This document shows, one piece after another, positions 1-59,395 of a stretch of DNA of 64,000 bases; the stretch's first letter is position 1, and the number at the start of each line of letters is the position of its first letter. This DNA is from Eledone cirrhosa (lineage: Eukaryota): positions 31,744,001-31,808,000 of the forward strand of contig OZ024751.1 in NCBI GenBank assembly GCA_964016885.1, written 5' to 3'. Under the pieces are notes generated by a model that was not told the DNA's origin, made no database searches, and was given only the letters and a program-made list of their open reading frames with translations. A program made the translations under genes and the position numbers.

Positions 1-1493
1 GCCATATCAGGATTGCTGAAAACAGAGCAGTATTGTTTCTGCAGTATCTCACCCATGGTTTTAGCATTGTCTTGAAGAGTGCCATTTTCATCAATTAGAG
101 GGCCAACAGTAGAGCCAGTGATTTTGTGTTTTTTTGCAAATGAAAAGAACACTTTGGGATTGAGTTTGATCTTCTCAATGGCCCAGGCCTCTTCAGCTCT
201 TCTCTGATTGTTGATGAGGGACATTATGTTGTTTTGGAGGTTATGTTTTTTAATCTCTAGTGATGAAATGGCAGTCAAGTTGATGTGTTGCTGCTGACAG
301 TATTTCAGATTGTTGATTTTTTTGTTCGTTCTCTTAATTTTTCTGATGAGCGTTTTTCTATTTCTAGGGATTCTGCTCTTAGATTTGTTTATAGTTCTTA
401 ATGGGGTGTGTTTAGCACATATGTTTGTAACAGTGTCCACAAATGTCTGCCAGGACTTTTTGATGTTAGTGGGTGTATGAGTGTGCGTGAAGGACCAGTC
501 GACATGTGCAAGATCATGACTGATCGCTTCCCAGTTTGCATTGTGGAAATCCATAGCGTCAAACGGATGGACAGGAGAAATGACATTGGGTTTGTATATT
601 GGACGGTGGAATCTCAGATCACAGAGAACCATGTCATGATCAGAGAGTAGAGTTTTCTCCACTGCAATATTGTGGATATTGTCAGTGTGATTGCTGAAAA
701 TTAAGTCTAGGACGTTTTTGTGGCACCTCGTTGGTTCGAGCACTAGTTGGGATAGGAAGAAATCATCCATGAAGTCAAGAAGCGATTCCACAGCTTCCCT
801 GTCAGAGGTTGAGGCAGAAGAACCTGGTGGCAGGGTGTTTGTGGACCAGTCAACTCCGGGGAGGTTGAAGTCCCCCATCATTAAGATGTTGTCAGGGTGA
901 CACTCTTGGATGAAACACTTTATGCTGTTGAGGCATTCCTTGAAGCATGGTACAGGCGTTTGGGGTGGCCTATAGAGCCCAACTACTAATAGGTTGTTGG
1001 TTTGACTGAATACAGTGACTGCCTCACAGTATCCATTAGTGAATATGTTCATAGCCTCTGTTGAGAAAGAATTATGGACATAAATGGCAGTTCCGCCCTT
1101 TCTTCTGCCAGCGCGATCAGCACGGATGGCTTTGAAATTTTTCACTTTCACCTCGGCTTCCAAGTGGAGGTTACTGAGATGGGTTTCAGTGAGGACGAAG
1201 AAAGGGATGTGGTTTGGATGGACATCAATCCAGTCCTCCAGGAATTTGATCTTCCATTTTTGAGTATTGGTGGAAGGGCTGATGCCTTGGGCGTTAAGCA
1301 AAAATGTAGAGGCGAGAGTGGATGGTTTTAATTGTTTTGGTGTGTTGTTAATTTGTTTGTTTGTTAATGGCAGCAATGGGAGTTTGTGCAGTGGGGTGAT
1401 AGTGGAGGGTGGTGCTGGGTGATAGCTCGAATGTTTTTTTCCAGTTCTTTTGCCAGATTCATTATGGCTAAAAAAGAGGAAGAAGTTTCCTGT
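1..1493 (-). CDS. CR1-like LINE ORF2, N-terminal part (APE endonuclease and linker); open frame runs off the window edge, no initiating ATG near its start
   Basis: Manual translation of the - strand shows no stop from 1493 to 1: ...FLLNAQGI...FVLTETHL...RADRAGRRKGGTAIYV...VGLYRPP...MMGDFNLPGVDW...EPTR..NVLDLIFSN...LSDHDMV...KLNPKVFFSFAKK...VGPLIDENG...EILQKQYCSVFS. These are APE endonuclease motifs plus a CR1-type linker. Missing from the ORF track, probably because it has no stop in the window. Confidence 0.9.
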
Positions 1494-2554
1494 TTAGAAG
1501 ACTGTTGGTGACTGTGGTAGTGGTTATTTTTATGTAGGTTATGGTTTTTGTTTTTGCTTTTATTTTTAATTTTATTTTCATTTATCCGACGGGTCCCCGG
1601 GAGATGGGTAAAGGGACAATCCCGGTCTAAACACAATCTGTCTCGCAGGGAAAAACGGCAGATTTGTGGATTCCTTGTTTGAGTTATTGGTGGTTGTGTT
1701 GGTGTTAAATTAGAGTATGTATTATGGTGGTGGCTGTTTGTGGGGATAGATCGTTTTGTCCTAGGTAAATGGGTGAATTTGCAGCCACTATCCGTACATA
1801 TTCTATAGCGTAGAGAGTAGCGGCAAATGATGGGGTTTCGAGTGGGTGGGTATATGGGTGTGGGTGTTGTGAGAGGTGTAGATGATGGTTTGGGTAGGAT
1901 TTGACGACCTTTGTGGACTGTGGGAGGGAGAGTTCTTGTTCTGGTATTAGAAGGTAAATTCCTTGACATAGCAGTAGACAAAAATGTTGTAGTAGTAGTA
2001 GTAGTAGTAGGCAGAGATGTTGGCAGTGGTGATGATTGGACTGCTGGGCCAGAGAAAGGATGTGGCGTTTCATGCTGTGAGACAGAGGCTACTGGGGGGT
2101 CAATAGTTTCATTTAGTAGATCGGCCATTGTTGATGAATCAAGGAGTGGTTCACACTGTTGTTGTTGCTGTTGTTGATGTTGTTGTTGTAGCTGTTGTTG
2201 ATGTTGTTGTTGTAGCTGTTGTTGTTGTTGCTGTTGTAGCTGCTGTTGTTGTTGTTGTTGCTGTTGTAGCTGCTGTTGTTGTTGTTGCTGCTGCTGGACA
2301 GCATTCGAAGAGAAAACACACCGTAGTTTATCCAAATGTTTATTGATTAATTTAAAAGCAATTTCGATTTGCTTTAATTTATTTTGAATCTGTTGTTCAG
2401 ATCGAGTTTTCAAAAATTGAACTGTACGTTTAGCAATGTCGTTCAGAGATGAAGCATCTATATTTTCTGTTTGGGAAAGGCAATGCCATGTGTTTATTAG
2501 AATGTCGATTTCATTATCAGACCAGTTCTGTTTGGATTTTTGCTGGTTAGCCAT
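1364..2554 (-). CDS. LINE ORF1 protein: N-terminal Myb/SANT-like (trihelix-type) domain, polyQ, Pro/Thr-rich linker, two CCCH-type zinc fingers
   Basis: 396-aa ORF directly upstream of the endonuclease frame. It contains NWSDNEIDILINTW...IAKR...RSEQQIQNKLKQI and two C-x8-C-x4-C-x3-H motifs (CRYSLRYRICTDSGCKFTH, CRFSLRDRLCLDRDCPFTH). Confidence 0.75.
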   Translation of the reverse strand: MANQQKSKQNWSDNEIDILINTWHCLSQTENIDASSLNDIAKRTVQFLKTRSEQQIQNKLKQIEIAFKLINKHLDKLRCVFSSNAVQQQQQQQQQLQQQQQQQQQLQQQQQQQLQQQHQQQLQQQHQQQQQQQCEPLLDSSTMADLLNETIDPPVASVSQHETPHPFSGPAVQSSPLPTSLPTTTTTTTTFLSTAMSRNLPSNTRTRTLPPTVHKGRQILPKPSSTPLTTPTPIYPPTRNPIICRYSLRYRICTDSGCKFTHLPRTKRSIPTNSHHHNTYSNLTPTQPPITQTRNPQICRFSLRDRLCLDRDCPFTHLPGTRRINENKIKNKSKNKNHNLHKNNHYHSHQQSSKQETSSSFLAIMNLAKELEKNIRAITQHHPPLSPHCTNSHCCH

Positions 2555-2564
2555 TCTAGTTTTG

Positions 2565-3005
2565 AGTGTGTGTGTGTTTTAGTTAAGTATTTCAATATAT
2601 ATATATTTTTTTTTTAAATTTATTTTTGATTTATTTTTGTTTTTTGTTTTTCTTGTGTGTGAGTGAGAAGCGTATATATATATAAATATGAGTATATATA
2701 TATATATATATGTATATTCTGGTTATTTGAAATTAATTAAGTTAATGAAAAGACGAAAGTATATAATAATAATTTGTAGTTAAAGGAAAATGTACTCACA
2801 AGTTCGTGTGTGTGTGTTTTAGTTAAGTATTTCAATATATATATATTTTTTTAAAATTTATTTTTGTTTTTTGTTTTTCTTGTGTGTGAGTGAGAAGCGT
2901 ATATATATAAATATGAGTATATATATATATATATATATGTATATTCTGGTTATTTGAAATTAATGAAAAGACGAAAGTATATAATAGTAATTTGTAGTTA
3001 AAGGA
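2565..3005. repeat. Tandem duplication of a ~200-240 bp unit (putative LINE 5'UTR monomers)
   Basis: gtgtgtgtgttttagttaagtatttcaatatatat...gaaaagacgaaagtatataa...atttgtagttaaagga starts at both ~2566 and ~2806. Confidence 0.85.
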
Positions 3006-8624
<5,619 letters not shown>

Positions 8625-10250
8625 TCCCAGCAGTTCTCCTAAAAATATGTAAGCGGGCCTTAGCAACTCCACTGAAGATGCTCTTCAGAAGCTCCTTGGC
8701 TAGCGGTGTACTACCCAGGGAGCTGAAAGAAGGCACAATATGCCCTATCATAAAGGAGGTAGTAGAGCGGAGGCCAAGAACTATAGGCCAGTCTCCCTGA
8801 CGTCCCATATCAGTAAGGTCATGGAGCGAGTCGTCAGAAAGAAACTAATCACTTTCCTCGAAGAAAATGACCGCCTGACTAGCACGCAACATGGCTTCCG
8901 CCCAGGAAGAAGCTGCCTTACACAGCTGCTACATCACTACGACTGGGTACTGAGACAGCTACTAGACAGCTCACATGTAGACGTGATATATCTTGACTTT
9001 GCGAAGGCCTTTGACAAGGTCGACCACGGAATGATATGTCACAAACTACACGGACTCGGCATAACTGGAAAAGTAGGTGAGTGGCTGCATGGCTTCCTGA
9101 GGGACAGAAGCCAGGCAGTCGCAGCAAATGGGGCTCTCTCGAGGGAAACACCGATAACAAGTGGGGTGCCTCAGGGGACAGTCCTGGGACCACTACTGTT
9201 TTTGCTGGCTCTCTCGGACATGCCCTCTGTGGTGCATGCAACAACATCCCTCACTAGCTATGCTGATGACACTAAGGTAGCACAGGCAATCAAAAACCCG
9301 ACTGACACTGCCCTCTTACAGCAGGATCTGGATGCCATATACAGATGGGCGGAAGAAAACAACATGCAGTTTAATGCTGGCAAATTCCAAGCCCTACAAT
9401 ACAAACCTGCAAACACAAACACAAATATAGCGGAACACAGCTACACAGGACCAGGAGGGACCGATATCCCCGTGTCAAAATCGATACGAGACCTGGGCAT
9501 AGACATGAGCGATGATGCATCTTTTTCTTCACACATCATGAAGGTGGCGACAGCATGTAGACGATTCGCTGGCTGGATCTTGAGGACTTTCCTTACAAGA
9601 GATCGAGACACCATGTTGACACTGTGGAGGACTTTTGTCCTAAGCCGCCTGGACTACTGCTCCCAGCTGTGGTCACCCCATAGTGTCAAACTAACCACAG
9701 AGCTTGAGGCAATCCAGCGAAGCTACACCAAGAGGATTGCCAAGATGAGGGAGACAAGCTACTGGGAGAGGCTGAAGGAACTGAACCTCTACTCCTTGGA
9801 GCGAAGACGGGAGAGATACGCAGTGATCTACATGTGGAAAAATCCTGGAGGGACTAGCACCAAACTTTGGCATTGGGAGCTGACCAACCGTCGAACAGGA
9901 CGTCACTGTGTGGTGCCAAAGGTCCCGTCTTCCACATCTAGAATAAGGAGCAGGTATTGCAATAGCCTGGGATTCAAGGGCCCTCAACTCTTCAACAGGC
10001 TGCCGAGGCATCTGCGAGACTTGCATGACGTGGAGGTGGATGTCTTTAAGAAACATCTCGACACCTTGTTATCCAGGATCCCGGATGAGCCCACAGCAAG
10101 ACACGAGGGAAACCTAAGGGCAGCAGCAACAAACTCCCTCCTACACCAGTGGCCAACCTATACAGGCTGGAGATAAAGTGTGTAGCAGCAAGGGCGGTGC
10201 CCCAGCATGGCCTCAGCCGGATGGCTGAAACAGGTAAAAGAGTAAAAGAG
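8625..10250 (+). mobile_element. 5'-truncated CR1-like LINE (RT domain, C-terminus, 3'UTR) with frameshifts
   Basis: [73 protein letters not shown]. Frameshifts near 8750 and 9840. The 3' end has the hairpin tcagcc-ggat-ggctga (10213-10228) and a short (GTAAAAGA)2 tail. Confidence 0.92.
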
Positions 10251-28129: not shown

Positions 28130-30481
28130 CTTTCGGTACCTAGGTGATCAGATTAGCATGGGAGGGGAGGGGGTTCTGAGGCTATAGTATCTAGAATGAC
28201 GGGTTGGAAGAAGTTTAGGGAGCTGCTTCCTCTGCTGACGAAGAAGAGGTTCTCTCTGCGTACAAAAGGCCGGTTATATGATGCCTGTGTGAGGTGCGCG
28301 ATGCTGCATGGTAGTTAGACATGGGCAGCAACTGCAGAGGATATGCGACAGCTGGAGAGAAATGAGGCAAGCATGCTCCGTTGGATGTGCAATGTCAATG
28401 TGCGTGAACGGCTGAGCATCGCTGTGTTGAGAGGGATAAATTGTGCGGGAGAGGAGACTGCGATGGTATGGACATGTGATGTGCATGGAGGATGACCAAT
28501 GGGTGAAGAAATGCCAGTTGAAGGAAGACGTAGTAGAGGAAGACCACAAAAAACATGGGCGGAGGTGGTGAGAACAGACCTCAGATCGCTGAAGCTCACG
28601 GTGGAGATGACGAAGGACCGTGACGAGTGGAGAGATGGTGTGCTGAATAGGACCCGTCCCACTCTTGCAAGCAGGGAAAAGCGGACGTAAAATGATGATG
28701 ATGATAGTTACAAATATTTTTTATTTCTATTATAACAGGCTGAATGAGTTGTGTGCCAGAACACAACAAAACTTAAGTACCTGATTATATCACTGTTGCA
28801 ACTATTTATACTAAACTCATCCTTTGGACTGAGTGCTCTTACCTTTGGATAATTCTACTTGTACTACAGTGTGTATATATATATATATATAGTTAGTGTT
28901 AGGAATGCTGTTGGTTTATTTTACATACTACGTATATATATTTTCTAGGACCCCAAGTTTAAATGATAAAGGCTGGATTACTTTACATACTAATGTCATG
29001 CACTTACAAGAGAAACTTTTCAGCCAAATCAGCCAAGCTGAAACATTAGAAGTAAGTTATATTTTGACTGTTTTTGTCATTACTTGAACTTTTCCACCTG
29101 CTTCAGTGGAACTCCATTCACACGTAGAGTTCACTGCGCAGGCTTCCTTGAAAGGACGAGTGTCTCAGTTTACGCAACACTGATTTTCATTCTGGCGATG
29201 CACCACTTGGCATTAAACCTATCAATTGCAAGTCGGAGATCACCTTCTGTTGAGTTAAGTAATGCAGTGTCGTCTGCAAATTCCAGCCGACTGATTTTAC
29301 ACTTGTCAGTCATAATACCACTTTTAACTTGGCTGTGAATGTCAATCCTGTTCATCAAAATAATGAAGAAGAACCTTCTAGAGTATATCTGTTATTACTT
29401 TCTAGAATATAACTGTCAACTTTACCCGATCTCGAGGGTTACTATACCCGATCTTGAGGGTTACTTTACCTGATCTCCAGGGTTACTATACCTGATCTCC
29501 AGGGTTACTTTACCTGATCTCCAGGGTTACTTTACCTGATCTCCAGGGTTACTATACCTGATCTCCAGGGTTACTATACCTGATCTCCAGGGTTACTATA
29601 CCTGATCTCCAGGGTTACTATACCCGATGTCCAGAGTTACTATACCCGATCTTGAGGGTTACTATACCCGATCTTGAGGGTTACTTTACCCGATCTTGAG
29701 GGTTACTATACCCGATCTCGAGGGTTACTATACCTGATCTCGAAGGTTACTATACCCGATCTCCAGGGTTACTATACCCGATCTCCAGGTTTTCTCAATC
29801 TCATTATTTATATTGATCGGCTATTATGATGGTCATTTTCGTTGGGACAAAATTGTTTCATGTCTTAAAAGAATATTTAATGAGGCAGTATATTTCTTGA
29901 CAGATCTTCGTAGCAAGTCTACTGTGCTCCAGCAATTTGGATACGATCAGTTTGGCAAAAAAATACATCACAAAGAAACACAATGACATGAAATCAACCC
30001 AACATGGTGATGTTGTTGTGAAGGTATCATTTGAAGGAAGTGTAAAACTTGTTCTGGCAGCATCCCAGGAATATTTCAATTCTGCTCTTGATCTCTCTCA
30101 TTTTTCTATGGAAATGGCTCAGTAAGTATCATGGATGTCTTCTTACTATTATAAAAAAAGCAGGCTGTCTTAATATCATGTGGCTTATGTCTTTTTACTA
30201 TTATAAAAAACAGTATGATTTAGTATCATGTGGCTTACGTCTTCTTACTATTATAAAAAAAAGGGTTTGTTTTAATTTTTAATAATTTGTTATGACTTAT
30301 GTATATATCTCCCTTTGTAGATCCTGCCTGAATTTGATAGAAGAACCTTCTGAAGTCATTCAAGAAGAATTAGATTTAATTGAAGCATTATCAATTCTTG
30401 GAGAATTTGAAATCAGTGTCCTACCTCTACAAAGTCAGTTTACTTTTAACTTTTTATATATCTTTAGCTGCATTGTCTAAC

Positions 30482-30523
<42 letters not shown>

Positions 30524-33500
30524 GAAAACTAGGTGTTGATGAATGGCTTGTGAGAGCTATACAAGCCATGTATAAAGAAACAGCCAGCAAGGTTAGAATT
30601 AACAACGAATATAGTGAAGAGTTTAGCGTAAAAGTTGGTGTTCATCAGGGCTCCGTCCTTAGCCCCCTACTATTTATTATTGCCCTTCAGACTATAACAG
30701 AGGAGTTCAAGACCGGCTGCCCATGGGAACTCCTATATGCAGATGATCTAACGCTCATAGCTGAATCAATGGCTGAACTAGAGAAGAAATTCCAAACATG
30801 GAAGCATGGCCTAGAATCAAAAGGCCTTAAAGTTAACTTGTCTAAGACTAAAGTTCTAGTTTGTAGGAAGGAAAATAGGGCACCGGTCCCATCTGGGAAA
30901 TGGCCATGCTCAGTGTGTAGGAAAGGAGTAGGTAGAAACTCCATTTTATGTCCCAAATGCAAAGTATGGGTACATAAAAGATGTAGTGGGATCACAGGTA
31001 AACTATCTAAGAATATAGATTTTATATGTGGCCGGTGCTCTGGTGCAATAAGTAGCAGCAAGTGCCCACAGAATACTAACTCGTTCCATTGCACAGGTGG
31101 TTCTATAGAAATAGTGGACAGCTTCCGTTACTTGGGTGATAAAATCAGCAGGGGGGAGGGTGCTCTGAAAGTACAGTAGCTAGAGCCAGAACGGGTTGGA
31201 AAAAGTTGAGAGAGCTTATACCACTATTGGCCGCTAAAGGGTTCTCTCTAAAAATGAAGGGCAGGCTGTATGATGCCTGCATACGAACAGCAATGTTACA
31301 TGGCAGTGAGACCTGGGCATTGTGTGCAGAGGATATATGCAGACTGGAGAGAAACGAAGCTTGCATGCTCCGCTGGATGTGTAATAGTAACATACGTGAA
31401 CGGCAAAGCATAAACGAACTAAGGGAAAAATTAGGAATAAGAGGGATCAGATATTGTTTACTCGAGAGAAGACTACGTTGGTATGGTCATGTGATGCGCA
31501 TGAAAGACGACAGCTGTGTAAAAAAGTGCAGGGCAATAAAAATAGACGGTAGCCACGGAGTAGGCAGACCCAGAAAAACCTGGGACGACTTGATAAATTC
31601 CGACCTCACACACTTACACCTCTCCAAGACAATGTCACTGGACCGAGAGCTTTGGCGCTACACAGTAATAGAGAAGACCCGCCTTACCTAAGTACAAAGT
31701 GAAACCTACTACAATCAGTAGGCACCTCTAACAAAATACACCCCGTCCCACTACCCACACCCCATCCACACCACCCCTTCAATGTAAAGTTATGTTGGTG
31801 TCACAACATCCAGCCCGAAACAAATGAGGTCGTGTAGGTGTCACGACAAAAAAAACACACAGTCCACGCTGTAATGTGGCCGTGTAGGCAACACGGTAAA
31901 AACCTCCCAGTTCCACACTGTAAATGTGGTTGGTGTTAGGAAGGGCATCCAGCCGTAGAAAACCCGCCAGGCAGTCCTATGCGAGCAAGACAACCACTCT
32001 TGCCTCAAGTGTGAAAACCCCCATCCAAACCCATGCAAGCGTGGAACACGGACGCTAAACCTTGATGATGATGATGATGATGATAACTCTTTAAAATTTA
32101 CACATAAAAACATACATACACACACTGCATTTCCTATATCAGTCAAATTGCTACAATAAGAAGTACACTTTCCAATCACAAGGTCCTGGGTTCTAACTCT
32201 ATATTTTTCCATGTAAATAGTTATTTCTCCAAAGTTACACATACATTTAATCCTAAATTACATTTGTACAGGGTGGACTAGGTGCTTGTCAAACCAGTGT
32301 TTGAAAAATAATTTAACAAAATGTTCAGACATAAAATTATCATGGAACATTTTAATTTAAGAACATTTTTAAACAAGCAATTTTGCATCACAGATCCAGA
32401 GTCTGTACCAAGTGACTAGTTATCAAAAGGATTAAAGTGACATAGAATATATATATATATATATATATATAATAACTAGAAATTGATTAACATATATATA
32501 AACATGAATAATCACAGGAGATAATTTTTACAAGTGTGTAACCACACATAGCTAGGTAGGTAACTAAATAAAGTTGACCAGAACTTCAAAAAGTGATTAT
32601 TCATGTTTATATATATGTTAATCAATTTCTAGTTATTATAATATGCTCGGACCTACTCGTTAGAATCTTAGAGCTTATTTTCCGGGTGATATGGCGCATG
32701 TCTTTCTGGCATGACACCCATAATTTTGATTTGGATTAAATTCATTTAATTTATCTTAATTTTGGATATATATATATATATATCATCATCATCATTTAAC
32801 GTCCATATTCCACGCTTGCATGGGTTTGGACGGGGGGTTTCCCACTTGAGGCAAGAGTGGTTGTCTTGCTCGCATAGGACTGCCTGGCGGGTTTTCTACG
32901 GCTGGATGCCCTTCCTAACACCAACCACATTTACAGTGTGGAACTGGGAGCAATGTGAAATAAAGTGTCTTGCTCAAGAAAACAACACATCACCCGGTCT
33001 GAGAATTGAACTCACAACCTTTCGATTGCAAGGCCAATGCTCTAACCACTAAACCATGTGCCACCAATTATATATATATATATATTTCGATTGCAAGGCC
33101 AATGCTCTAACCACTAAGCCATGTGCCTCCAATCTATATATATAAAACTGTGGTTGTCTGTCTGTCTATCGACTTTTGGCACACATCTCCTCTTAGAATC
33201 TCTCACGGAATTGCACCGAAATTGCTATACTTGTACATTGAGCCCTAGCGAAGACATCGGAAAAAAAAAAATTTCAAATTGACCCGCCCTATGTGACGAA
33301 ATCGAATATAATGTATCGATTTTTGAGCGTAAGTTATCAGTTATTTCCCTTTGTTCTGTTTACATTGAGCGTCTTACGTAAAAAATTACGCTGGCTTTAA
33401 CAGTTGTCGAGCCAGCAAAATAATGACCTGCAAAATTCATCAGTTCGAACACTAAGCTTCCCTTTTGCTTCATTTCCATTTAAAAGCATTTTAAAACAAT

Positions 33501-50992: not shown

Positions 50993-53900
50993 CAGAACGA
51001 GATGTATATATATTACAAGTGGCTAGAGAGGGAGACGAGAGATGGAATAGACTTGACTTCAGTGGGGCTCTGATCGATTTAGATCAATTGAAAGCTTTTG
51101 ATAGGGTTGACTATTGATACCTGGAGGCTGTTCTTCAGCAGCCAGTTTCGGTCTTGTCTTCAGAGGCTGGATCGCTGCAAGGCACAGCAGCATCTGTTTG
51201 GCGGTCAACGTAAATGGCCACTTATTGGAACCATTTCAGATCAGGCGCTCAGTCCGTTAAGTATGCCCTCTCTCCCCTCTGCTGTATATACTGACTCTCG
51301 AGCCACCACTGCGGAAGCTGGAGCTGTTATAAGGCATCCTGCTTGAACCGGGATGTGGAATGGAAGGGCTGCTTCAGCTTATGCAGATGATGTCACCATG
51401 ATAATGTTGAACACCTTGGAAATTGAAATGATTGGCAGTTTTTTAGAGAAATATGAAACATTGATAGAAGTAAAATTCAACCCAGATAATGTATACTTAT
51501 TTAAATGGTCTTTCTTTGTTTTGTTTTTTAGTTAAAGAAATTACATATCCAAATATTGGTGGATGGCAATTCATTGGAATTAATTGAAAAGATTCTGTCT
51601 GTCCAAAGTATCGATGATTGGAATACAGCTTCTGTTGTCCAGAATGCTCTGGTATATTCTATTGACTATACCTGGTAAGTATTTGTCTCTCATATAGACA
51701 CATGCCTGTCTGTGTCTAAAGATGCTCAATATCTATGTATATGTGTGTGTGAAAATGTATATAAATCAATTGTTTTATATATATATATATATGTGTGTGT
51801 GTGAGTGTATGTGTGTGTGTATATGTAATTGTGTGTATATATGTGTGTATATGTATGTATATATATATGTATATATATTGTGTGTATAAGAGAGAAAGTG
51901 TGTATATATATATATATAGACATTTATTCTATAAATATGTGTGAGTGTGAAAGTATAGTCTTTTGTTATGTGTAAAAGTGGAAACAGTCTATTGTATGTG
52001 TTTCATCATCATCATTTTACGTCCGCTTTTCCCTGCTTGCAAGGGTGGGACGGGTCCTATTCAGCGCACTATCTCTCCACTTGTCACGGTCCTTCGTCAT
52101 TTCTTCGGTGAGTTTCAGCGATATGAGGTCTGCTCTCACCACCTTTGCTCATGTTTTACGTAGTCTACCTCTACTGCGTCTTCCTTCTACTGACATTTCT
52201 TGGCACTTCTTTACCCAGCAGTCATCCTCCATACCATCACATGTCCATACCATCTCAGCCTTCTCTCCTGCACTCTACAACTTATCCTTCTTATACCCAG
52301 TTTCTTTCTTAACTCGTCTATGCTTGGTCGTTCACGCACATTTACACTGCACATCCAACGGAGCATACTTGCTTCATTTCTCTCCAGCCGGCACATATCC
52401 TCTGCAGTTGCTGTCGATGTCTTACTACCATGCAGCATCGCGCATCTCACACAGGCATCATATAACCGTCCTTTCATACGCAGGGAGAAACCCTTCTTTG
52501 TCAACAAAGGAAGCAGCTCCCTAAACTTCTTCCAACCCATCCTTATTCTAGATACTATGGCCTCGCCCCCCCCCCCCCCTCCCATGCTAATCTGATCACC
52601 TAGGTACCGGAAGCTATCAACTATTCTATAGAACCCACCTGCATTGGAAAAATGTGTCTATCACTGCGATTAATACTGCCAACTTTCCCTGTACATCTAC
52701 TGCATACGTAGTTTTCCCTACCTGTTAGTTTGCCTGCTATCCCACTACATCTCTTGTGTACCCAAGATCTGCATTGCGTACATTTTATGGAATTTATGCC
52801 AGTTCCTTTCCTAGATATTGAACATGGCCCTGATGGAATCGGAGTATTGTCCTCTCTTCTACTTATCATCACTTTTGTCTTAGCTATGTTCACTCTCGGT
52901 CCTCTTGATTCCAACTGCTGTTTCCATAGCCAGAATTTATTCTCTAGCTTCTCTACTGATTCTGCTATAAGAACCAGATCGTCAGCATAGAGAAGTTCCC
53001 ATGGACAGCCAGTCTTAAACTCCTCTGTTATGGCTTGGAGGACTACAATGAACAAGAGTGGGCTGAGGACTGAACCCTGATGTACACCTACTTGTATCTG
53101 GAATTCCCCACTAAACTCCATTCCTACTCTCACTTTACTGACAGCACCCCTGTTCATAGCTTGCACTGCCCTCACAAGCCATTCCTCTACACCTAGTTTC
53201 CTTAGGGACCACCAGATGACAGATCGGGGTACCCTATCAAAGGCGTTCTCTAGGTCAACAAAAGCTAAGTATAGTGGATTATTCTTCTCTAAGAACTTGT
53301 AGTTGCCTCACTAAGAAGAGAGCATCTGTTGTACTTTTCCGAGGCACAAAACCAAACTGTATCTCATCTAGTTTGACCCTTTCTCTAATCAGTTGCACTA
53401 ATATTCTCTCTACCACTTTCATAATTGATCCATCAGCTTTATACCCCTATAATTGCTCCTCTCTAGAGCATCCCCTTTACCTTTGTAGCAATTTATGAGA
53501 ATACTGCTGCACCAGTCTTTGAGTATGACACCACCATATATAGCCTGATTGATGATGCGTGCAACCAGTTTAATGCCTACTTCATCTGATGTCTTCAGCA
53601 TCTCAGCAACTATCCCCGACAGTCCAGCAGCCTTACCATTCTTCATTTCTTTAATTGCCTCTTGGACCCTATATTCGTCAATCTCAATAGCTGGTCCCTC
53701 TGTCGGGTCTATTGGGGGTAATTTCTCTCTCTCCCATTCGTTCTCCACATTCATCAGTCTCTCATAGTGACATTTCCAGGCCTCCTTTTTTTGATCATTC
53801 GTGACACTAAGTACACTGGCATCATTCCGGACACACTTATCTCCAACAACATCCTGATTTGCATTGACACACTGCCTTGCAATGCGGAACACTGCACGTC

Positions 53901-56900
53901 TCTGATCTTCCAGTCGCAGAACATTGACAAACCTCCTACTCTCAGCCTCCCTGCGTGCTAAGTACACCTGATGTCTAGCTTCTCTCCTAGCGGCTGTGTA
54001 TCCTTCCCTACTTCCACCATTTTTCCAAGCCTTCCATGCCAGTCTTTTGTCTCTAAGGGCCCTATCTACCGTGTTGTTCCACCACCAGGTCACTCTCTGT
54101 CTGGTTGAAGCTCTGCCTCAACCACAAGTTTCTTCAGTAGCCTGCAGTAAGTTGTGTGTATAGACAGTGTCGTATCTATGTCAGACAGTCTATTGTTGTA
54201 TGTGTATATATATATATATATATATATGTGTAAATATGTATGCATATCAATGTAAAAGTGTATACACAGTCTATTGTTCTGTGTGTTTCAGTGATAAAAC
54301 CTGCCATAGCGATATCTTTGACAAACTGGGTGGTATTTCTGTGATTGAAGGTATCGTACAGAATGTAGTGAAACACCAAGAGTCAGGGTGAGTATTATCT
54401 TTCCTTATTAGTTTCTAGGCCGGAAGCTCTAGAGTCTTGGACCATTACCAGCTTTTAACAGCTAGTGGGTGATGGCCTATATTTAACATCTGGTCGTGTT
54501 ACAGTTACATTCGACATCTGGTCTGGGTCACATTCGACATCTGGTCTGGACTCATTACCAGCTTTTAACAGCAGGTAGGTGATGGGCTACATTTAACTGG
54601 TCTGGGCTACATTTGACACCTGGTCTGGAATTATTACCAGCTTTTTATGGCTCTATCTGTGACTAAGCTTAATTTCCTGGCTGTCTTCATTTCTCTTCCT
54701 TTACAGTAAACAAGTCCTTCAGAAAGACATAAAAACATTGCAGATTCTAGTTTCTGTTCTCAAAAGATCTCTATTGATCATTGTGATGATGATAGCTTTT
54801 TATACATTTATAGTTTTAGTTGTCAGTTGTTAACTGCTGATACACCTAAATAAGAAACTTCTATTGATCATTGCAATCATGATGATGATAGCTTTTTATA
54901 TGTTTATATCTGAATATTTTTAGGGGTCAGCTGGTAACTGCTGATGAAATCCTGAGCCAAGTATTACCCTTCTGTTCTGATGTCTCCATTGGTGTCCAGC
55001 CACGACTTAGTTTACTTGCAATGTTAGAAAAGGTAAATAAAAGTTTTACTTTACAGTTGTTTTCTTCTTATCAAACATTAAAAGGTTGCTTAAAAGTTAA
55101 ACACTTGTTTTATTGAACACTATTGAGAGTTATTAGCTGTTGTATCGTCTAACTCATGCTAGCGTGGAAGATGGACGTTAAATGAAGATGATGATGATGA
55201 TGTATGGAACCAACAGACTAATGAAATAAAAATCTTCTGACCCCTTTCATAACCATATTTATATGGCTGGATGCTCTTCCTATCTTCTGATCGACAACAA
55301 CAAATTAGAGATTGACGACGATGAATTTGAAGCTTATGATAACAAATTTTTGATTGATGAATTTGAAATTGACAACGATGAAACGACAACAAAATTGATA
55401 TTAACGAATTTGAGATGGTAACCCTGTAATTTATGTTAATTTATGTTAATTATTTTGTTGATGTTTTCATTATCAGAACTTTCATCTTAAACCCGAAGAT
55501 GTGAAATTGTTGATGTTTTACCGAACTAGCGCCATCATTGAGGAATCTTGGCCAGAGTACAAGGTAATTAATCAATCCCTTTGTTGCCGTATCTCTAACA
55601 AAATAAATACACTGTCTATGTGTTTCAAATAATTTGGAAAATAATCGAACATTTTGAGGAATTTAATAAAATAACATTTGTAAGATGATATTTAGATCAT
55701 TACTTATAGATTTCTGAAATAAAATTATGATGGAAGGTTTTAAATATCAGGATAAACATTTTGAAATGAGCAAGTTTTGTATCAGGCAACTGGCAAGAGA
55801 CGCAGAGGTCGACCTTGAGTAAGATGGTTGGATAACATATTGATGAGCTTGGTTGGTCTCACTTGAGGATCCAGCCAGATCAATGGATGACAGTTCCTTC
55901 TGATAAGATCCTCTGGAAAACATATTTGACTCTGTTCTCACAACACTCCCAGGAATAGATGGACAATGAAGAAAAAGAAGTTTTCTATCCTAAACCCAAG
56001 GGCAGTTTTAGGTGGGTTTGTATATTAAAAGGGTTAAAACAATATTTCATTTAGCCACATAGATTAACCATCTTATCGTCTTTTACTGTAGATCACAAAT
56101 CTTTTCAAGATGAAATTAAATTATGAAAAAAAATCCACGTTTTAATATAAATTGAATGAAATTAACAGTTCATCTCCTTCATCATTCTGGAATGAAATTT
56201 TCTAAGTAATCTTTCTCTTCCAAACAGATCAGCAATAAAGAAATTGAGTCTAATGCATCGCGTCACAAATTGTTCACCAACTTACTTACGTCAAGCACCA
56301 ACAATAATCAATTTACTGCAGTTTGTCAGTTGCTGAAAATGTGGCCTGCATTTGAGAACAGGTAAATTTCTTCTTTCACTGTCAATATTGTTTCAGTTTT
56401 AATGGGGTTATAGTGCAGGCAAATTTGTTCTTTCACTGTCAACATGTAGTACAGGGTGTTGATAATCATAGGCAGTGTTTTTTATTTGAAAACAGGTGGT
56501 ACAGGGTGTTGAAAATCATAGGCAGTGTCTTTTATTAGAAAATTTGTGGTACAGATTGTTAAATCATAGGGACTGTTTTTTTTTAATTAGAAATATGGTA
56601 ACGAAAGGGGTTAAACTACACTTTAATGTTTCAATCTCCTCATTTTCTATTATGTTTTTCTTCCTGCATGCAATGTAACAGCAATCAAAACACTGCTTCT
56701 GAAAACCCCTGGATTCAACTGGTGACAACCATGACTACCTTCTCTGATTGTGTTCCAATGATAGGAACCATTTTAAAAGACATTCCTGAAGAGGCAGCTC
56801 TGAGTGAAGAGGTAATGATTTTACTTTTATGAAATTAGTATTAAATGTCTTGTTAATTCAACTATTGAACTGTTCATAAATAAGGTACTGTGTTGAGGGG

Positions 56901-59395
56901 GTGGGGGCACACTTAATCTGTTGTTTTGTTTAACATCACACCACCTGGTTCTTGAGTATCTTTAGTAGAGTATGAGAGAGAAAATGATTGACAAAATCAC
57001 AAACTTCATTCCCTCATTTCCATTGGTCTTTCCATTGTTGATACTATCTACCGGCCATAACTCCTGGCAGAAGGAGCAACGTGAAATAAAGTGTCTAGCT
57101 CAAGGACATAGTGCATTGCTTGGTCCAGTAATTGTACTTGGATTCATGATTGCGAATCAAATTCTCTAACCACTATGCCACATCCCTTCACTATTAGAGT
57201 ATACACTGTTGCAAAGTCTTCAGGCAGGTCTCCACGCTCTTTGTAGCATATAAGCTATAGCTTATTCTTGTCTCAGTGCTGAGTAAGCATCACTGATGAT
57301 GGATAAAAATCCTGAAACACTGGTGCTTGGTGTTTTCACATGGTTACTGAGATAGCTGTGACATGACCACAGCTTAAAACATTCATAGTAAGACATATAT
57401 ACGTTTATTATACATTGACATATTCTATATGCCTTCATACACACACCTCTATTATGAATTACGCTATGTTAGTGCTACTGCTAATTATCTCGGTGTATCA
57501 GGTGTAATTTGGAGCATTAAAAACAAAAGTGTTATTATTGGTTAAATATTTGATGTTATTTGTGCATTTTCAGTGTTTCAAACACATTGTCGATCAGCTG
57601 TTATCAAAAAATTATGTGGTCGCTGCTGTGAAAACTGCTTTGCTCTCACCATACACTCAGTTACATAAGTCCACAATTGAACATTTACAGACACAAAACC
57701 AGGTAACTTATTCTTATCATTTACCATTTCTGCTCTGGTTCTTCATGTGGAACCATTCTGATTTCTTCTTACATTGACCACACATTTTAGAGGAAAGTTA
57801 TAGTTAATAGAATTAATTCTAGTATATTATTACATAATGCTGGTTCCACAATAAAATACACTCAGTGCACCCTGTAAAGAGGTAGTGCTGGTTCCACAAT
57901 AAAATACACCCAGTGCACTCTATAAAGAGGTAGTGCTGGTGTAAAAATAAAATACACCCAGTGCACCCTATAAAGAGGTAGTGCTGGTGCCACAATAAAA
58001 TGCATCTAGTCCACCCTGTAAAGGGGTAGTGCTGGTGCCACAATAAAATGCATCTAGTCCACCCTGTAAAGGGGTAGGGCTGGTGCCACAATAAAATGCA
58101 TCTAGTCCACCCTGTAAAGGGGTAGTGCTGGTGCCACAATAAAATGCATCTAGTCCACCCTGTAAAGGGGTGGTGCTAGTGCCACAATAAAATGCATCTA
58201 GTCCACCCTGTAAAGGGGTAGTGCTAGTGCCACAATAAAATGCATCTAGTCCACCCTGTAAAGGGGTAGTGCTGGTGCCACAATAAAATGCATCTAGTCC
58301 ACCCTGTAAAGGGGTAGTGCTGGTGCCACAATAAAATGCATCTAGTCCACCCTGTAAAGGGGTAGTGCTAGTTCCACAATAAAATGCATCTAGTCCACCC
58401 TGTAAAGGGGTAGTGCTAGTTCCACAATAAAATGCATCTAGTCCACCCTGTAAAGGGGTAGTGCTAGTTCCACAATAAAATGCATCTAGTCCACCCTGTA
58501 AAGGGGTAGTGCTAGTGCCACAATTAAATGCATCTAGTCCACCCTGTAAAGGGGTAGTGCTGGTTCCACAATTAAATGCATCTAGTCCACCCTGTAAAGG
58601 GGTAGTGCTGGTTCCACAATTAAATGCATCTAGTCCACCCTGTAAAGGGGTAGTGCTGGTTCCACAATTAAATGTACTCGACATCCTGTAAGATGCTGAT
58701 ACCACGGGGAAAAACACCCACTCTACTCTGTAAGTTGAACTCACACCACACACTTACACACTGTCAAAGACAAACGTACATCTCAATTCCTCCTCATTAT
58801 TTGCTGCTGTCTTTTAGAGGTAGTTGGAATTCTTAGCTAACCAAAACTAAACTTTAACTTCTAAATATCCTATGTTTGTCGTCCTTGGATTATTTCATGG
58901 GGAGACAACTTTGGTAGCAGTAACGAACATGTTTGAACTATAAGCAGGTGCTTAAATATCCATGACACACCTTATATCATTAGGGCGTCCCCTAAAACTC
59001 CATCAGGAGTTACTGGTCAGTACAAACATGCAAATGTTTTTTTAAATAGAGATTGTTTTTTTTACTGTTCTAAATGTTGGCTTTTTATTTTTCTCTGGCA
59101 GGTGGAAGATGACAGTGAATTATTTAACCTGATATTATTGAATCATCTAATGGCTAGTATTGTTAACAGCTGTTATTACCAGCCTCTCGTCAACTTTCTC
59201 CTCAATGAACAAGTAGTTTATCAAGACTCATTACTTCCAAACCATCTTGATATTGACCTTATATGTCAGCAACTCATCGACAATGGTTTTAAAGCAGAAG
59301 CTGGTTCAGTATTGTTCAAGTCTCGCAGCACCCATCCCATGTTCCAGACTTTCGGGGCAGCTCTCAGTGTTTGTAAACACTGGCTAAAGATGTGA
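13286..59395 (+). CDS. NBAS: NBAS (neuroblastoma-amplified sequence; NRZ tethering complex subunit, Sec39-like; NMD factor), 45 coding exons, 5' part not in window
   Basis: The spliced peptide LVCLRSTTPEELYAQK-IDNEEYGEALALAKAYGLDCDLVYQRQWQKS-KRSWVLHECLERVP...YGLKGTD, together with HRLAILSNFPETTSP, LPLQIRL, GVDIQRFTEDKAYKQETILGLA and WEVYMTHLEFLF, matches NBAS as I recall it. All 45 exons have AG/GT boundaries with consistent phases. Confidence 0.93.
15636..15761 (+). CDS. NBAS: NBAS exon
   Basis: IDNEEYGEALALAKAYGLDCDLVYQRQWQKSAVSLASIEDYL; ag/gt boundaries. Confidence 0.92.
15828..16050. repeat. 21-bp minisatellite (cagctactaatatttactata)n
   Basis: About 10 degenerate tandem copies. Confidence 0.9.
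16073..16224 (+). CDS. NBAS: NBAS exon
   Basis: RKISKRSWVLHECLERVPDSINALRELMEYGLKGTDLQ. Confidence 0.92.
16311..16646. mobile_element. Putative Tc1/mariner-type MITE
   Basis: Imperfect terminal inverted repeats (ctcttgggtctcgaataa ... ttatttgggacgtgagag) flanked by TA on both sides. Confidence 0.5.
16764..16910 (+). CDS. NBAS: NBAS exon
   Basis: LVMCNDEDLIYDSDEEEDYDPFS...REELLSQIDFC; phase-consistent. Confidence 0.85.
16963..17150 (+). mobile_element. tRNA-derived SINE; related copies at ~12940-13020, 18365-18490(-), 42150-42720, 45470-45750, 59775-60175
   Basis: B-box-like ttcaaatcc, shared body gaggttagctttgcctttcatcct...gataaaataaagtaccagta; other copies end in ggccttgtgcctaaattagaaac(att)n. 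Confidence 0.75.
17671..17749 (+). CDS. NBAS: NBAS exon
   Basis: LLLEQKELSRARMKLLQYLYRLRTYE. Confidence 0.9.
18618..18722 (+). CDS. NBAS: NBAS exon
   Basis: LILGGIHVAQERFNKVFFERFRSENIVEEAVKFAQ. Confidence 0.9.
19280..20180 (-). mobile_element. 5'-truncated RTE-clade LINE, family A (ORF C-terminus and 3'UTR)
   Basis: GWKKFRQLIPLL, KGRLYDACIRTAMLHGSETW, RRLRWYGHMMR, GRPRKT; (GAT)n tail; close relative of the copy at 30520. Confidence 0.9.
20330..20394 (+). CDS. NBAS: NBAS exon
   Basis: DSEVVAVEALFTYHGSGVLPHR. Confidence 0.9.
20450..20650. repeat. ~32-36 bp minisatellite (ttgactttataaccccatatcatgacatttt..)
   Basis: About 6 tandem copies. Confidence 0.85.
20860..20931 (+). CDS. NBAS: NBAS exon
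   Basis: LAILSNFPETTSPREYSNLLPEV. Confidence 0.9.
20975..21400. repeat. ~23-bp degenerate minisatellite (tatcaaacattctgatattaat)
   Basis: Many tandem copies. Confidence 0.85.
21470..21544 (+). CDS. NBAS: NBAS exon
   Basis: PNGMMFPWEEDRWRDDDWCEADDC. Confidence 0.88.
22038..22112 (+). CDS. NBAS: NBAS exon
   Basis: QAVDIHHYDVELNLYEEYPNLLKY. Confidence 0.87.
22329..22458 (+). CDS. NBAS: NBAS exon
   Basis: MLTQWYSERACEIELESRMVDNSVELIQIGIERGVP. Confidence 0.9.
22747..22881 (+). CDS. NBAS: NBAS exon
   Basis: GLEDLVNDLLTMDCLVYDCHIGCELSFKEIQNMSNIQKAHLLMSK. Confidence 0.9.
23256..23429 (+). CDS. NBAS: NBAS exon
   Basis: SSVEKYIKNIYSWLIPFLKRCEQ...AKEDLTLPLKVFEASKSN. Confidence 0.9.
23768..23841 (+). 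CDS. NBAS: NBAS exon
   Basis: LSTQIISNPADKIQMAVDVIYICE. Confidence 0.88.
24014..24460. repeat. Long inverted repeat (fold-back element), ~180 bp arms
   Basis: actagacctgaaaaatgcgcaagctcaaaagagccacagaatg... pairs with ...cattctgtggctcttttgagcttgcgcattttccaggtctagt. Confidence 0.92.
25267..25326 (+). CDS. NBAS: NBAS exon
   Basis: DDQISKAESIVKCLPNKIQ; ag/gtgagt. Confidence 0.87.
25472..25531 (+). CDS. NBAS: NBAS exon
   Basis: SGSYIQDLYKQKERLESHI. Confidence 0.85.
26260..26323 (+). CDS. NBAS: NBAS exon
   Basis: AAKIFEENGLKQTIYSIKMSQ. Confidence 0.87.
27045..27310 (+). mobile_element. 3' part of a SINE ending in an RTE family B tail
   Basis: Matches the element at 62225-62565; ends in ttgcaagcagggaaaaagcggacgtaaaatga. 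Confidence 0.75.
27684..27742 (+). CDS. NBAS: NBAS exon
   Basis: ESETAARNMLVKLTRAAGR. Confidence 0.87.
28129..28705 (+). mobile_element. 5'-truncated, degenerate RTE LINE, family B
   Basis: GWKKFRELLPLL, RLYDACVRCAMLHG, RGRPQKTWAEVV; (GAT)n tail; related to the copy at 52005. Confidence 0.88.
28949..29051 (+). CDS. NBAS: NBAS exon
   Basis: TPSLNDKGWITLHTNVMHLQEKLFSQISQAETLE. Confidence 0.88.
29084..29370 (-). mobile_element. Degenerate LINE RT fragment
   Basis: ISRLEFADDTALL...ARMKISVA (RT xADD motif region). Confidence 0.6.
29420..29790. repeat. 21-bp minisatellite (ttactatacctgatctccagg..)n
   Basis: About 17 tandem copies. Confidence 0.92.
29904..30121 (+). CDS. NBAS: NBAS exon
   Basis: IFVASLLCSSNLDTISLAKK...SVKLVLAASQEYFNSALDLSHFSMEMA. 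Confidence 0.9.
30321..30433 (+). CDS. NBAS: NBAS exon
   Basis: SCLNLIEEPSEVIQEELDLIEALSILGEFEISVLPLQ. Confidence 0.9.
30520..32083 (+). mobile_element. 5'-truncated RTE LINE, family A (RT, Cys-rich segment, C-terminus, 3'UTR); one frameshift near 31150
   Basis: VGVHQGSVLSPLLF, LLYADDL, WPCSVCRKGVGRNSILCPKCKVWVHKRCSGI, FRYLGD, LRWYGHVMR; (GAT)n tail. Confidence 0.93.
32468..32642. repeat. Inverted repeat with ~47 bp arms
   Basis: ataactagaaattgattaacatatatataaacatgaataatcac ... gtgattattcatgtttatatatatgttaatcaatttctagttat. Confidence 0.85.
32780..33066 (-). mobile_element. tRNA/CORE-like SINE carrying the RTE family A 3' tail
   Basis: Minus strand reads tggtttagtggttagagca...gagttcaattc (A/B boxes), then ttcttgagcaagacact, then sequence nearly identical to 31905-32080. 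Confidence 0.8.
33133..36493 (+). mobile_element. Cluster of non-autonomous Helitrons: 33133-34045, 34046-36493, and a nested copy at 34814-36188
   Basis: 5' TC(tatatatataaaactg) starts, 3' GC-rich hairpin cccg-agcaacgc-cggg followed by CTAG, A^T insertion sites without TSD, internal gtgcagacagacagtc minisatellite. Confidence 0.85.
35275..35920. repeat. ~90-bp tandem repeat, 7 copies, inside the nested Helitron
   Basis: cctctatgaggtcactaaacctgctagaaacagcagctaactctccctcatatcacacc...tgtcttaaatttagaaaac. Confidence 0.92.
36514..36886. repeat. Near-perfect ~370 bp palindrome with a 7-nt loop
   Basis: Centre ...gttcactcactagagtt-ttgtccc-aactctagtgagtgaac...; ends taaagatccgaaggcatggt / accatgccttcggatcttta. 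Confidence 0.93.
40116..40195 (+). CDS. NBAS: NBAS exon (after a ~9.7 kb TE-filled intron)
   Basis: (I)RLEKNRLKYVKEALNSRSNSYQLSDK; completes the LPLQIRL motif. Confidence 0.88.
41074..41163 (+). CDS. NBAS: NBAS exon
   Basis: LLRLAKLLRVSDDAEIEGQVYQLIAEKALD. Confidence 0.88.
41268..41548. repeat. 30-bp minisatellite (tgttggtagatataggtactggtttagtta)n
   Basis: About 9 copies. Confidence 0.92.
41632..41750 (+). CDS. NBAS: NBAS exon
   Basis: AKDYMRAYYACSRLMEKSYPPAWSVCMDLSQNGNCVLGT. Confidence 0.88.
41917..42004 (+). CDS. NBAS: NBAS exon
   Basis: IELLDFALTYCEPNQIQSILDAKALIDIQ. Confidence 0.88.
42847..43233 (+). CDS. NBAS: NBAS exon
   Basis: LLYDQVCAEF...VLNQTKDILLST...EKQACHPFYEEIIENCAVDK. Confidence 0.9.
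43355..43690 (+). mobile_element. tRNA-derived SINE
   Basis: tggctgagtggttt (A box) ... caggttcagttc (B box), CORE-like catcttggccaagtgtc; body partly shared with 60985-61200. Confidence 0.65.
43877..44006 (+). CDS. NBAS: NBAS exon
   Basis: KVANFETFEHHVPALVETSDIVLRTAKLKETLTEGKEYMPATE. Confidence 0.88.
44475..44551 (+). CDS. NBAS: NBAS exon
   Basis: LLKLAGATITTDFSLGLAYLLALPN. Confidence 0.9.
44816..45110 (+). CDS. NBAS: NBAS exon
   Basis: IEDADQCFSQLPNTTLSIQLAEYYYSLQLY...DHAQARFLRGLGR. Confidence 0.92.
45833..45899 (+). CDS. NBAS: NBAS exon
   Basis: GVDIQRFTEDKAYKQETILGLA. Confidence 0.92.
46242..46352 (+). CDS. NBAS: NBAS exon
   Basis: TNEADVFNIAISLADRYNLSQWEVYMTHLEFLFCES. Confidence 0.92.
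46843..47093 (+). CDS. NBAS: NBAS exon
   Basis: RMQDYVYPFIEGEDHSRLIYYYSLF...HVNLLKKLRPIAP. Confidence 0.92.
47656..47774 (+). CDS. NBAS: NBAS exon
   Basis: GLDYKLLMTSEDPLVSVIQPVLSKENVNTIAKLASKIPNK. Confidence 0.9.
48324..48419 (+). CDS. NBAS: NBAS exon
   Basis: SGGFIRPGMVYSVWAAKSFWNAKENRPKLSGD. Confidence 0.88.
49008..49121 (+). CDS. NBAS: NBAS exon
   Basis: SCWLQQYDDCLEFTQKMVPADFLTFIESITFVSPSREK. Confidence 0.88.
49294..49388 (+). CDS. NBAS: NBAS exon
   Basis: LTLNCRENILKKALKYCYQDEGKKKKKQDDS. Confidence 0.87.
50380..50542 (+). CDS. NBAS: NBAS exon
   Basis: CDVTWVIAADTIERYLEHLRSQKNPVIEKLQ...QFDLSMGNIEQ. Confidence 0.87.
51000..51490 (+). mobile_element. Highly degenerate LINE RT fragment
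   Basis: aaagcttttgatagggttga (KAFDRV) and SAYADDVT motifs in broken frames. Confidence 0.55.
51532..51674 (+). CDS. NBAS: NBAS exon
   Basis: LKKLHIQILVDGNSLELIEKILSVQSIDDWNTASVVQNALVYSIDYT. Confidence 0.87.
52005..54155 (-). mobile_element. 5'-truncated RTE LINE, family B (linker, RT, C-terminus) with stops and frameshifts
   Basis: TWWWN, KGKGDALERSNYRGIKL, DLENAFDRVP, VGVHQGSVLSPLLF, LLYADD, LRWYGHV; tail reads (TCA)n on the + strand. Confidence 0.93.
54292..54387 (+). CDS. NBAS: NBAS exon
   Basis: DKTCHSDIFDKLGGISVIEGIVQNVVKHQES. Confidence 0.85.
54924..55032 (+). CDS. NBAS: NBAS exon
   Basis: GQLVTADEILSQVLPFCSDVSIGVQPRLSLLAMLEK. Confidence 0.9.
55477..55563 (+). CDS. NBAS: NBAS exon
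   Basis: NFHLKPEDVKLLMFYRTSAIIEESWPEYK. Confidence 0.9.
55780..55980 (+). mobile_element. Short degenerate RTE-like 3' fragment
   Basis: ggcaagagacgcagaggtcgacct...agatggttggataacat, resembling GKRRRGRP..RWLDNI. Confidence 0.5.
56228..56361 (+). CDS. NBAS: NBAS exon
   Basis: ISNKEIESNASRHKLFTNLLTSSTNNNQFTAVCQLLKMWPAFEN. Confidence 0.9.
56682..56811 (+). CDS. NBAS: NBAS exon
   Basis: NQNTASENPWIQLVTTMTTFSDCVPMIGTILKDIPEEAALSEE. Confidence 0.87.
57574..57702 (+). CDS. NBAS: NBAS exon
   Basis: CFKHIVDQLLSKNYVVAAVKTALLSPYTQLHKSTIEHLQTQNQ. Confidence 0.87.
57845..58735. repeat. 48-bp minisatellite, ~18 copies
   Basis: Unit tagtccaccctgtaaaggggtagtgctggtgccacaataaaatgcatc; period 48 (58011 to 58059). 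Confidence 0.95.
59102..59395 (+). CDS. NBAS: NBAS terminal coding exon
   Basis: VEDDSELFNLILLN...GFKAEAGSVLFKSRSTHPMFQTFGAALSVCKHWLKM*. Confidence 0.92.
   Translation: MEDDSELFNLILLNHLMASIVNSCYYQPLVNFLLNEQVVYQDSLLPNHLDIDLICQQLIDNGFKAEAGSVLFKSRSTHPMFQTFGAALSVCKHWLKM

Follow-up and report, generated by a model that had tools for sequence, protein, structure and literature searches.

How the second open reading frame (ORF2) carried by a long interspersed element (LINE) is translated when it lacks a start codon of its own is the question raised by a 64,000-nt stretch of Eledone cirrhosa DNA (contig OZ024751.1, positions 31,744,001 to 31,808,000, forward strand; hereafter the window). On the minus strand, from about position 3005 to past the left end of the window, lies a nearly full-length LINE made up of 5' untranslated region (UTR) monomers, ORF1 and ORF2. 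It has the features of an APE-type non-long terminal repeat (non-LTR) retrotransposon, namely an ORF1, an ORF2 with an APE endonuclease and a reverse transcriptase (RT), dispersed copies and a simple-repeat 3' end; the element and its close copies are referred to below as family 1. The initial annotation of this DNA had pointed to a -1 overlap between ORF1 and ORF2, to an ORF2 frame that opens after a TAA at 1496-1494 and has no ATG until well inside the endonuclease, and to two in-phase slippery heptamers, and had suggested that ORF2 may be expressed as an ORF1-ORF2 fusion through programmed frameshifting. On rechecking, the coordinates, the -1 overlap, the stop codon and the phases of both heptamers were all correct, and the first ORF2 ATG was located at codon 148 (1052). 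Feature coordinates are collected in Table 1.

ORF1 and the -1-frame ORF2 overlap by 130 nt (43 codons), and the ORF1 stop falls 19 codons ahead of the endonuclease. Among the 397 codons of ORF1, only two X XXY YYZ heptamers occur in phase, U UUU UUA and A AAA AAC, both of them inside the overlap; the -1 frame is open from the first heptamer onward and has no start of its own. TTA is the rarest Leu codon of this ORF2 (6 of 91). Initiation at the ATG of codon 148 would truncate the enzyme, because the invariant endonuclease residues Asn67 and Glu103 lie before it. In an alignment to the L1 endonuclease structure 2v0r, Glu103, a presumed metal-binding residue, falls on the ETH motif. The explanation that we consider probable is a low-level -1 ribosomal frameshift at U UUU UUA (1475-1469), which would join ORF1 and ORF2 into one protein about 1,400 aa long.

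The arrangement is not peculiar to the copy in the window. Identity over positions 1150-1750 (601 nt) was scored on the best 40 of 1212 candidates in the 3.0-Gb genome, and all 40 were 100% identical. Likewise, TTTTTTAG precedes the downstream 26-mer in 594 of 618 exact copies of this 26-mer, ORF1 is intact in 17 of the 20 copies extending to its ATG, and no indel was listed in any of four contig runs (three studies). A search of sequencing runs listed no RNA run as a match, a result that counts neither way. The 594 exact copies and the four runs largely dispose of the idea that an indel or a misassembly produced this arrangement. The -1 overlap is real, a family-wide layout fixed in hundreds of young copies. 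These same data, together with the enrichment over five controls described below, make it very improbable that the heptamers arose by chance in an A/T-rich overlap or that the layout is an artefact, even though the second heptamer does look incidental.

The first heptamer is found with exact flanks in 54 of 56 family-1 copies and with a flank change in one more; an extra T at the run occurs in one copy, T6 being kept in the other 55. These counts bear on the possibility that RNA polymerase slips on T6 (or A7) and adds a base, thereby fusing the ORFs in the RNA. LINE proteins favour their own RNA (cis preference), an argument on which the case against polymerase slippage and that against splicing (see below) both lean: since cis preference would copy the altered RNAs, many extra-T copies would be expected. 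Moreover, related lineages have sites that are not homopolymeric, U UUA AAC or C CCU UUA for instance. Homopolymer runs are present at both heptamers, one extra-T copy does exist, and polymerase and ribosomal slippage are described as hard to distinguish (PMC5009743). On balance, we attach very little probability to polymerase slippage.

U UUU UUA is conserved beyond what the protein requires. The window itself contains, at 8623-10176 (+), a 5'-truncated copy of family 2, a second young CR1-type family whose full-length copies also carry this site. ORF2 of family 2 is 37% identical to that of family 1, the -1 overlap measures 271 nt, and the first Met comes only within the endonuclease. The site, AAA AAT TTT TTA GTG, lies about 64 codons ahead of the ORF1 stop; the AAU ahead of the heptamer is also found in HIV-1 (human immunodeficiency virus type 1). 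Sixteen of the 31 copies covering the site are exact and several single copies are mutated, as expected in dead copies. The three most diverged copies (87%, 87% and 76%) retain T TTT TTA despite changed upstream codons. Sampling of 20 stretches, each of 10 kb, brought up family 3, which is related to family 1 as an older sister (about 70-73% DNA identity). It reads TCT TTT TTA GCC in all three copies where the site was found among 12 loci examined; at a fourth locus, L222, the alignment starts only just after the site. Two protein searches of the same genome for further families returned only families 2 and 1 again. Neither ORFs in one frame nor an ATG at the ORF2 start, either of which would count against frameshifting, turned up in this genome's families.

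Conservation does not extend to the second heptamer, so that the initial proposal is supported for one of its two candidate sites. Family 3 has CAG AAA AAC (G AAA AAC) at this position or has lost the site, and no A AAA AAC occurs in the overlap of family 2 or of two more distant relatives, L085 and L086. The second heptamer is probably incidental or a minor second site, and the scheme proposed below would not need it.

Two scans for relatives elsewhere each yielded the best 80 of about 400 matches (160 loci). With families 1 and 2 added, 56 of 162 had a readable junction. Nine of the 56 rows were dropped before counting, namely L233, L245, L255 and L261 (near-duplicates) and L141, L251, L266, L278 and L291 (called ORFs not adjacent), leaving 28 elements with a -1 overlap and 19 others. 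The -1 overlaps contain 25 in-phase heptamers in 1644 codons, distributed over 21 of the 28 elements. This density, 1.5 per 100 codons, compares with 0.1-0.5 in five controls: heptamers in the two other phases of the same 1644 codons (2 and 7), upstream ORF1 (13 in 7230 codons), ORF2 bodies (115 in 25165) and, in elements without a -1 overlap, the final 60 codons of ORF1 (2 in 1121). By Fisher tests, p ranges from 1e-3 to 2e-10. Codon usage points the same way, the dipeptide FL being spelled T TTT TTA in 7 of 10 overlap cases, compared with 7 of 114 cases within ORF2 bodies and none of 11 in upstream ORF1. In five elements no stop interrupts the ORF2 frame over the 44-78 codons that separate the heptamer from the endonuclease, with a chance probability of 0.0002-0.07 each. 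The part of the initial claim that invoked U UUU UUA is well supported by both conservation and enrichment over controls.

Three of the relatives, L085, L086 and L246, carry U UUU UUA in phase, 1-3 codons past the ORF2-frame stop. Their ORF2 identities are 27-41%, each has a -1 overlap and, where checked, there is no AUG before the endonuclease. A quick RT tree joins families 1 and 2, L085, L086 and L229 in one subclade (Shimodaira-Hasegawa-like approximate likelihood ratio test, SH-aLRT, 98), four of whose five members (families 1 and 2, L085 and L086) have U UUU UUA and no Met; L246 has the same site and lies outside the subclade. The subclade in turn sits inside a group with 88% support that also holds a stork protein, presumably a CR1 sequence; with no L2, Jockey or Repbase references in the tree, the placement in the CR1 lineage is tentative. 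The closest named protein is from Argonauta (59% identity across the region searched). At the protein level, 18 of 19 homologues of L086 ORF1 (L086 included; 4.3 in shuffles) have an FL beyond their final finger, at a distance of 39-88 residues from the C-terminus, and its position is kept in 9 of 10 ORF1 clusters at 40% identity. Scans of viral contigs gave no useful relative.

Four relatives have their ORF1 stop within the endonuclease, at +4 codons in family 2 and L086 and at +17 in L246 and L273; in family 2 it overlaps invariant Leu-Asn codons of the enzyme. In two relatives it falls within the first strand of the endonuclease, so forward reinitiation could not yield an intact enzyme there. 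These data bear on the alternative that ORF2 is made by AUG-independent reinitiation, or by internal initiation, at a near-cognate codon of the linker, and that the heptamer merely mirrors a conserved Phe-Leu pair. Near-cognate codons do lie in frame ahead of the endonuclease (CTG 1391, TTG 1376, ATT 1352); the 19-codon distance of the ORF1 stop fits reinitiation if family 1 is taken alone; no frameshift stimulator was found by folding; and AUG-independent initiation is the route favoured for mammalian LINEs (PMC5009743). However, this alternative leaves unexplained the exact T TTT TTA codons, the long open linkers and the ORF1 stops inside the endonuclease of the four relatives. Reinitiation of the L1 type would also lack its intergenic spacer, in place of which there is a 130-nt overlap. 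Altogether, we consider initiation within the linker unlikely. Stop-start coupling through UAAUG, as in SART1, was rejected since the ORF1 stop reads TAACA.

Alternatively, TTTTTTAG might be a 3' splice acceptor, with ORF2 translated from a spliced RNA. The base following the heptamer is G, or the next triplet CAG, in families 1-3, L085, L086, L246, L303 and L089; family 1 has a pyrimidine tract ahead of the heptamer and GTGAGT in the 5' UTR monomer; and ORF1 of family 2 and of L086 has phase-compatible donor-like motifs. Such motifs are absent, however, from ORF1 in 7 of 9 elements, family 1 included, L273 has no AG, and the first AUG past the site is in the ORF1 frame. Furthermore, since cis preference would copy spliced RNAs, spliced copies would be expected, yet spliced retrocopies were not found: in none of the 618 copies is there a non-T base four places ahead of the would-be exon. 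Seven of 24 variant copies were examined and showed five point or run changes and two apparent 5' truncations; one truncation falls exactly at the AG, but the DNA upstream of it is unrelated to the element. A spliced origin of ORF2 seems highly doubtful in the light of these observations.

Folding downstream of each heptamer had been put forward as a check of the initial proposal. Nested folds were compared with those of shuffled sequences. Neither 3' nor 5' of either heptamer was there anything above shuffles, and no stem-loop 5-9 nt downstream was found (nested folds only). No stimulatory structure having emerged, the first heptamer is not a classical bipartite, heptamer-plus-pseudoknot signal. 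A C-rich motif of the PCBP type after the second heptamer was also considered and discarded: the region is C/A-rich, and by eye no motif is common to the relatives.

Several points weigh against frameshifting at U UUU UUA or weaken the figures in its support. A stable 3' structure is absent from family 1, family 2, L085 and L086 alike (z -1.4 to +1.1), and a BLAST scan of inverted matches for long-range complementarity gave only chance matches of 9-13 nt. In L229, also a member of the RT subclade, A AAA AAC is found together with an in-frame Met; L273, the sister of L246, has U UUU UUG; and P0133 has FC at the site. Seven of the 28 elements with a -1 overlap have no canonical heptamer, and an in-frame Met is present in 9 of the 21 that do. 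The Fisher p-values are overstated because the elements are related, and the count was preceded by the removal of nine of the 56 readable rows. Finally, FL may be kept for protein reasons.

With these points taken into account, frameshifting at the first heptamer is the reading that we retain. Most ribosomes would complete ORF1 (396 aa), ending in the FL-started segment FLAIMNLAKELEKNIRAI...HCCH, whose residue pattern suggests a helix. A minority would slip by -1 on U UUU UUA after 361-362 residues and would then read the linker, the endonuclease and the RT; from the heptamer onward, 1,039 codons are open in two other, intact copies. The fusion would retain the first 362 aa, including the Myb-like domain and the CCCH fingers, and lose the C-terminal FL helix. 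Lacking a 3' structure, such slippage would be infrequent and would perhaps derive from the heptamer alone, for example through slow decoding of UUA; such a rate would suit the small need of a LINE for ORF2 protein (ORF2p). U UUU UUA is the frameshift site of HIV-1 and of the 6K gene of Semliki Forest virus (SFV), where a one-tRNA slippage route is set by the supply of tRNA-Leu(UAA), and slippage of the one-tRNA kind at dnaX is said to require no downstream structure (PMC6771820). By analogy, the one-tRNA route may apply to family 1.

The likeness to these viral systems has its limits. As in gag-pol of HIV-1 and 6K of SFV, U UUU UUA encodes Phe-Leu in the zero frame of family 1 and the downstream gene is in the -1 frame (PMC6771820, PMC4373837). 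Both viruses have a 3' stem-loop, whereas none was found in family 1. Unlike them, family 1 is a non-LTR retrotransposon without a protease, and the fusion would presumably remain uncut. Also comparable are TRE5-A and TRE3-A of Dictyostelium, which according to a review need a -1 frameshift for ORF2 (PMC5911963); they are APE-type non-LTR elements as well, but belong to an amoebal, tRNA-gene-targeting lineage. Among non-LTR elements, HeT-A of Drosophila is named as one that depends on a frameshift for its expression, but the shift is within gag and the element has no reverse transcriptase (PMC5009743). Mammalian L1 and Bombyx SART1 share with family 1 a bicistronic LINE RNA and low-level ORF2 (PMC5009743, PMC3894237); L1, however, uses a spacer and unconventional initiation and SART1 a UAAUG stop-start, and neither layout exists in family 1. 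What the locus presents is a layout common to the whole family, in which a single slippery site is conserved, and a probable variant of the known -1 frameshift mechanism.

A second point of comparison is provided by CR1 elements with an esterase ORF1 (L089, L100, L233 and L244). Like family 1, they combine a CR1-type ORF2 with a -1 overlap and an in-phase canonical heptamer. In these elements U UUA AAC or U UUU UUA stands 2-3 codons ahead of the ORF1 stop, with an overlap of 16-46 nt, whereas in the CCCH-type group the site is 36-82 codons ahead of the stop, within a dual-coded overlap of 130-271 nt, and lacks any visible hairpin. Hairpins are present downstream of the site in L089 (z down to -2.8) and L100 (z down to -1.5), about 10 nt from the heptamer in both. 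Heptamers also end ORF1 in the esterase-type elements L245, L103 and L239, the frames being offset in the L103 and L239 copies.

There is a wider possibility, on which we are evenly divided: -1 frameshifting could be a widespread means of making ORF2p throughout the CR1 group of animal LINEs, with the heptamer tied to the ORF1 type (for CCCH, U UUU UUA; for esterase, U UUA AAC or U UUU UUA; for a third type, A AAA AAC or C CCU UUA). In the present invertebrate lineage it would be structure-free and would swap the ORF1 C-terminal helix for the enzyme, the RT arriving in a Gag-Pol-like fusion that ties it to its own RNA-binding protein. The CR1-type elements L088, L090, L094, L096, L098, L110, L131 and L136 have another kind of ORF1, -1 overlaps and in-phase heptamers (A AAA AAC at KN, C CCU UUA at TPL, and G GGA AAC), several with an in-frame Met. 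A different junction was noted in L109, L113, L115, L121, L091, L234 and L242, where ORF1 and ORF2 share a frame, are separated by a single stop and have no Met before the endonuclease; readthrough or L1-like reinitiation is possible there. In addition, 394 stretches in the prokaryote genome collection code CR1-type RTs (for example L228-L232, L243-L245, L254, L296 and L299); these are most likely contaminating animal DNA.

In the available text of PMC3894237, ORF2 translation in LINEs is called an open question, and stop-start, reinitiation, internal ribosome entry sites and 2A are given as routes, frameshifting not among them. Term look-ups showed no occurrence of the word "frameshift" in PMC4120745, PMC3905857, PMC13343379 and PMC10294476, and gave nothing on CR1 frameshifting from PMC4700185 and PMC4837594. 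No description of frameshifting in CR1-type LINEs was found in the literature searched, older subscription papers lying beyond its coverage. Descriptions of turtle CR1 and mosquito T1/Q from the 1990s reportedly mention overlapping ORFs and may have suggested frameshifting. If frameshifting at U UUU UUA is confirmed, ORF2p would be a fusion with the ORF1 domains, which would change protein annotation as well as ribonucleoprotein and cis-preference models, and a candidate structure-free -1 frameshift would be added in animals. About 600 near-identical junction copies in a young family, with a conserved site placed exactly, make the question of ORF2 translation testable.

Table 1. Features of the family-1 element in the window (positions as in the window).
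Feature	Position	Strand	Remarks
5' UTR, tandem monomers of ~245 nt	2555..3005	-	no ATG in printed monomer
ORF1	1364..2554	-	ATG 2554, TAA 1366-1364; 396 aa
CCCH-pattern finger 1 (C-x8-C-x4-C-x3-H)	1769..1825	-	by eye from translation
CCCH-pattern finger 2	1604..1660	-	by eye from translation; weak PF10650 match
Last ORF2-frame stop, TAA	1494..1496	-	6 codons ahead of first heptamer
Slippery heptamer U UUU UUA (ORF1 codons TCT TTT TTA), predicted -1 frameshift site	1469..1475	-	sequence, conservation
Second heptamer, A AAA AAC (codons GAA AAA AAC)	1433..1439	-	present, not conserved
Dual-coded stretch	1364..1474	-	ORF1 frame, FLAIMNLAKELEKNIRAI...HCCH; -1 frame, start of Pro/Ser/Thr-rich linker
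ORF2-frame linker, heptamer to endonuclease	1311..1468	-	open, Met-free, ~54 codons; sequence
ORF2 endonuclease and following region	3..1310	-	PF14529, PF03372; 2v0r match, E=0.0017
First ORF2-frame ATG	1050..1052	-	codon 148, inside endonuclease; sequence

From its N-terminus, ORF1 comprises a Myb/SANT-like region, a Gln-rich tract, two CCCH-pattern fingers and the FL-started C-terminal segment. The Myb/SANT-like match (PF13837, E=0.0026) is weak and under the curated Pfam cut-off; the zf-C3H1 match (PF10650, E=0.85) that overlies finger 2 is weak too. The Gln tract (2200-2300, -) varies in length among copies, remaining in frame throughout, so that ORF1 measures 383-396 aa. No Pfam match was found in ORF1 to the domains of ORF1 types I-IV of PMC4120745 (RRM/CCHC, transposase-22, PHD and esterase), and the words CCCH and Myb are absent from the main text of that paper; by its domains, this ORF1 would belong to the unclassified type V.

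ORF2 runs off the left end of the window into the RT, in the neighbouring stretch L031. Compared with L314, 200 nt are missing from this copy close to the 3' end of ORF2, at L031 3554-3600, which lies to the left of the window. The 3' end of the element consists of short CAAAGTT repeats passing into (TA)n, and TA-rich microsatellite flanks most of the copies printed. Each 5' UTR monomer has a GTGAGT donor-like motif, and CTAG stands directly ahead of the ORF1 ATG; an intron within the 5' UTR is possible.

Elsewhere in the window, 30481-31691 (+) and 52621-54117 (-) are broken fragments of another LINE type, which we take from their motifs to be RTE-like. A tandem array at 57968-58753 is built of a 51-nt unit open in one frame and encoding CGTSTTPLQGGLDAFY repeats.

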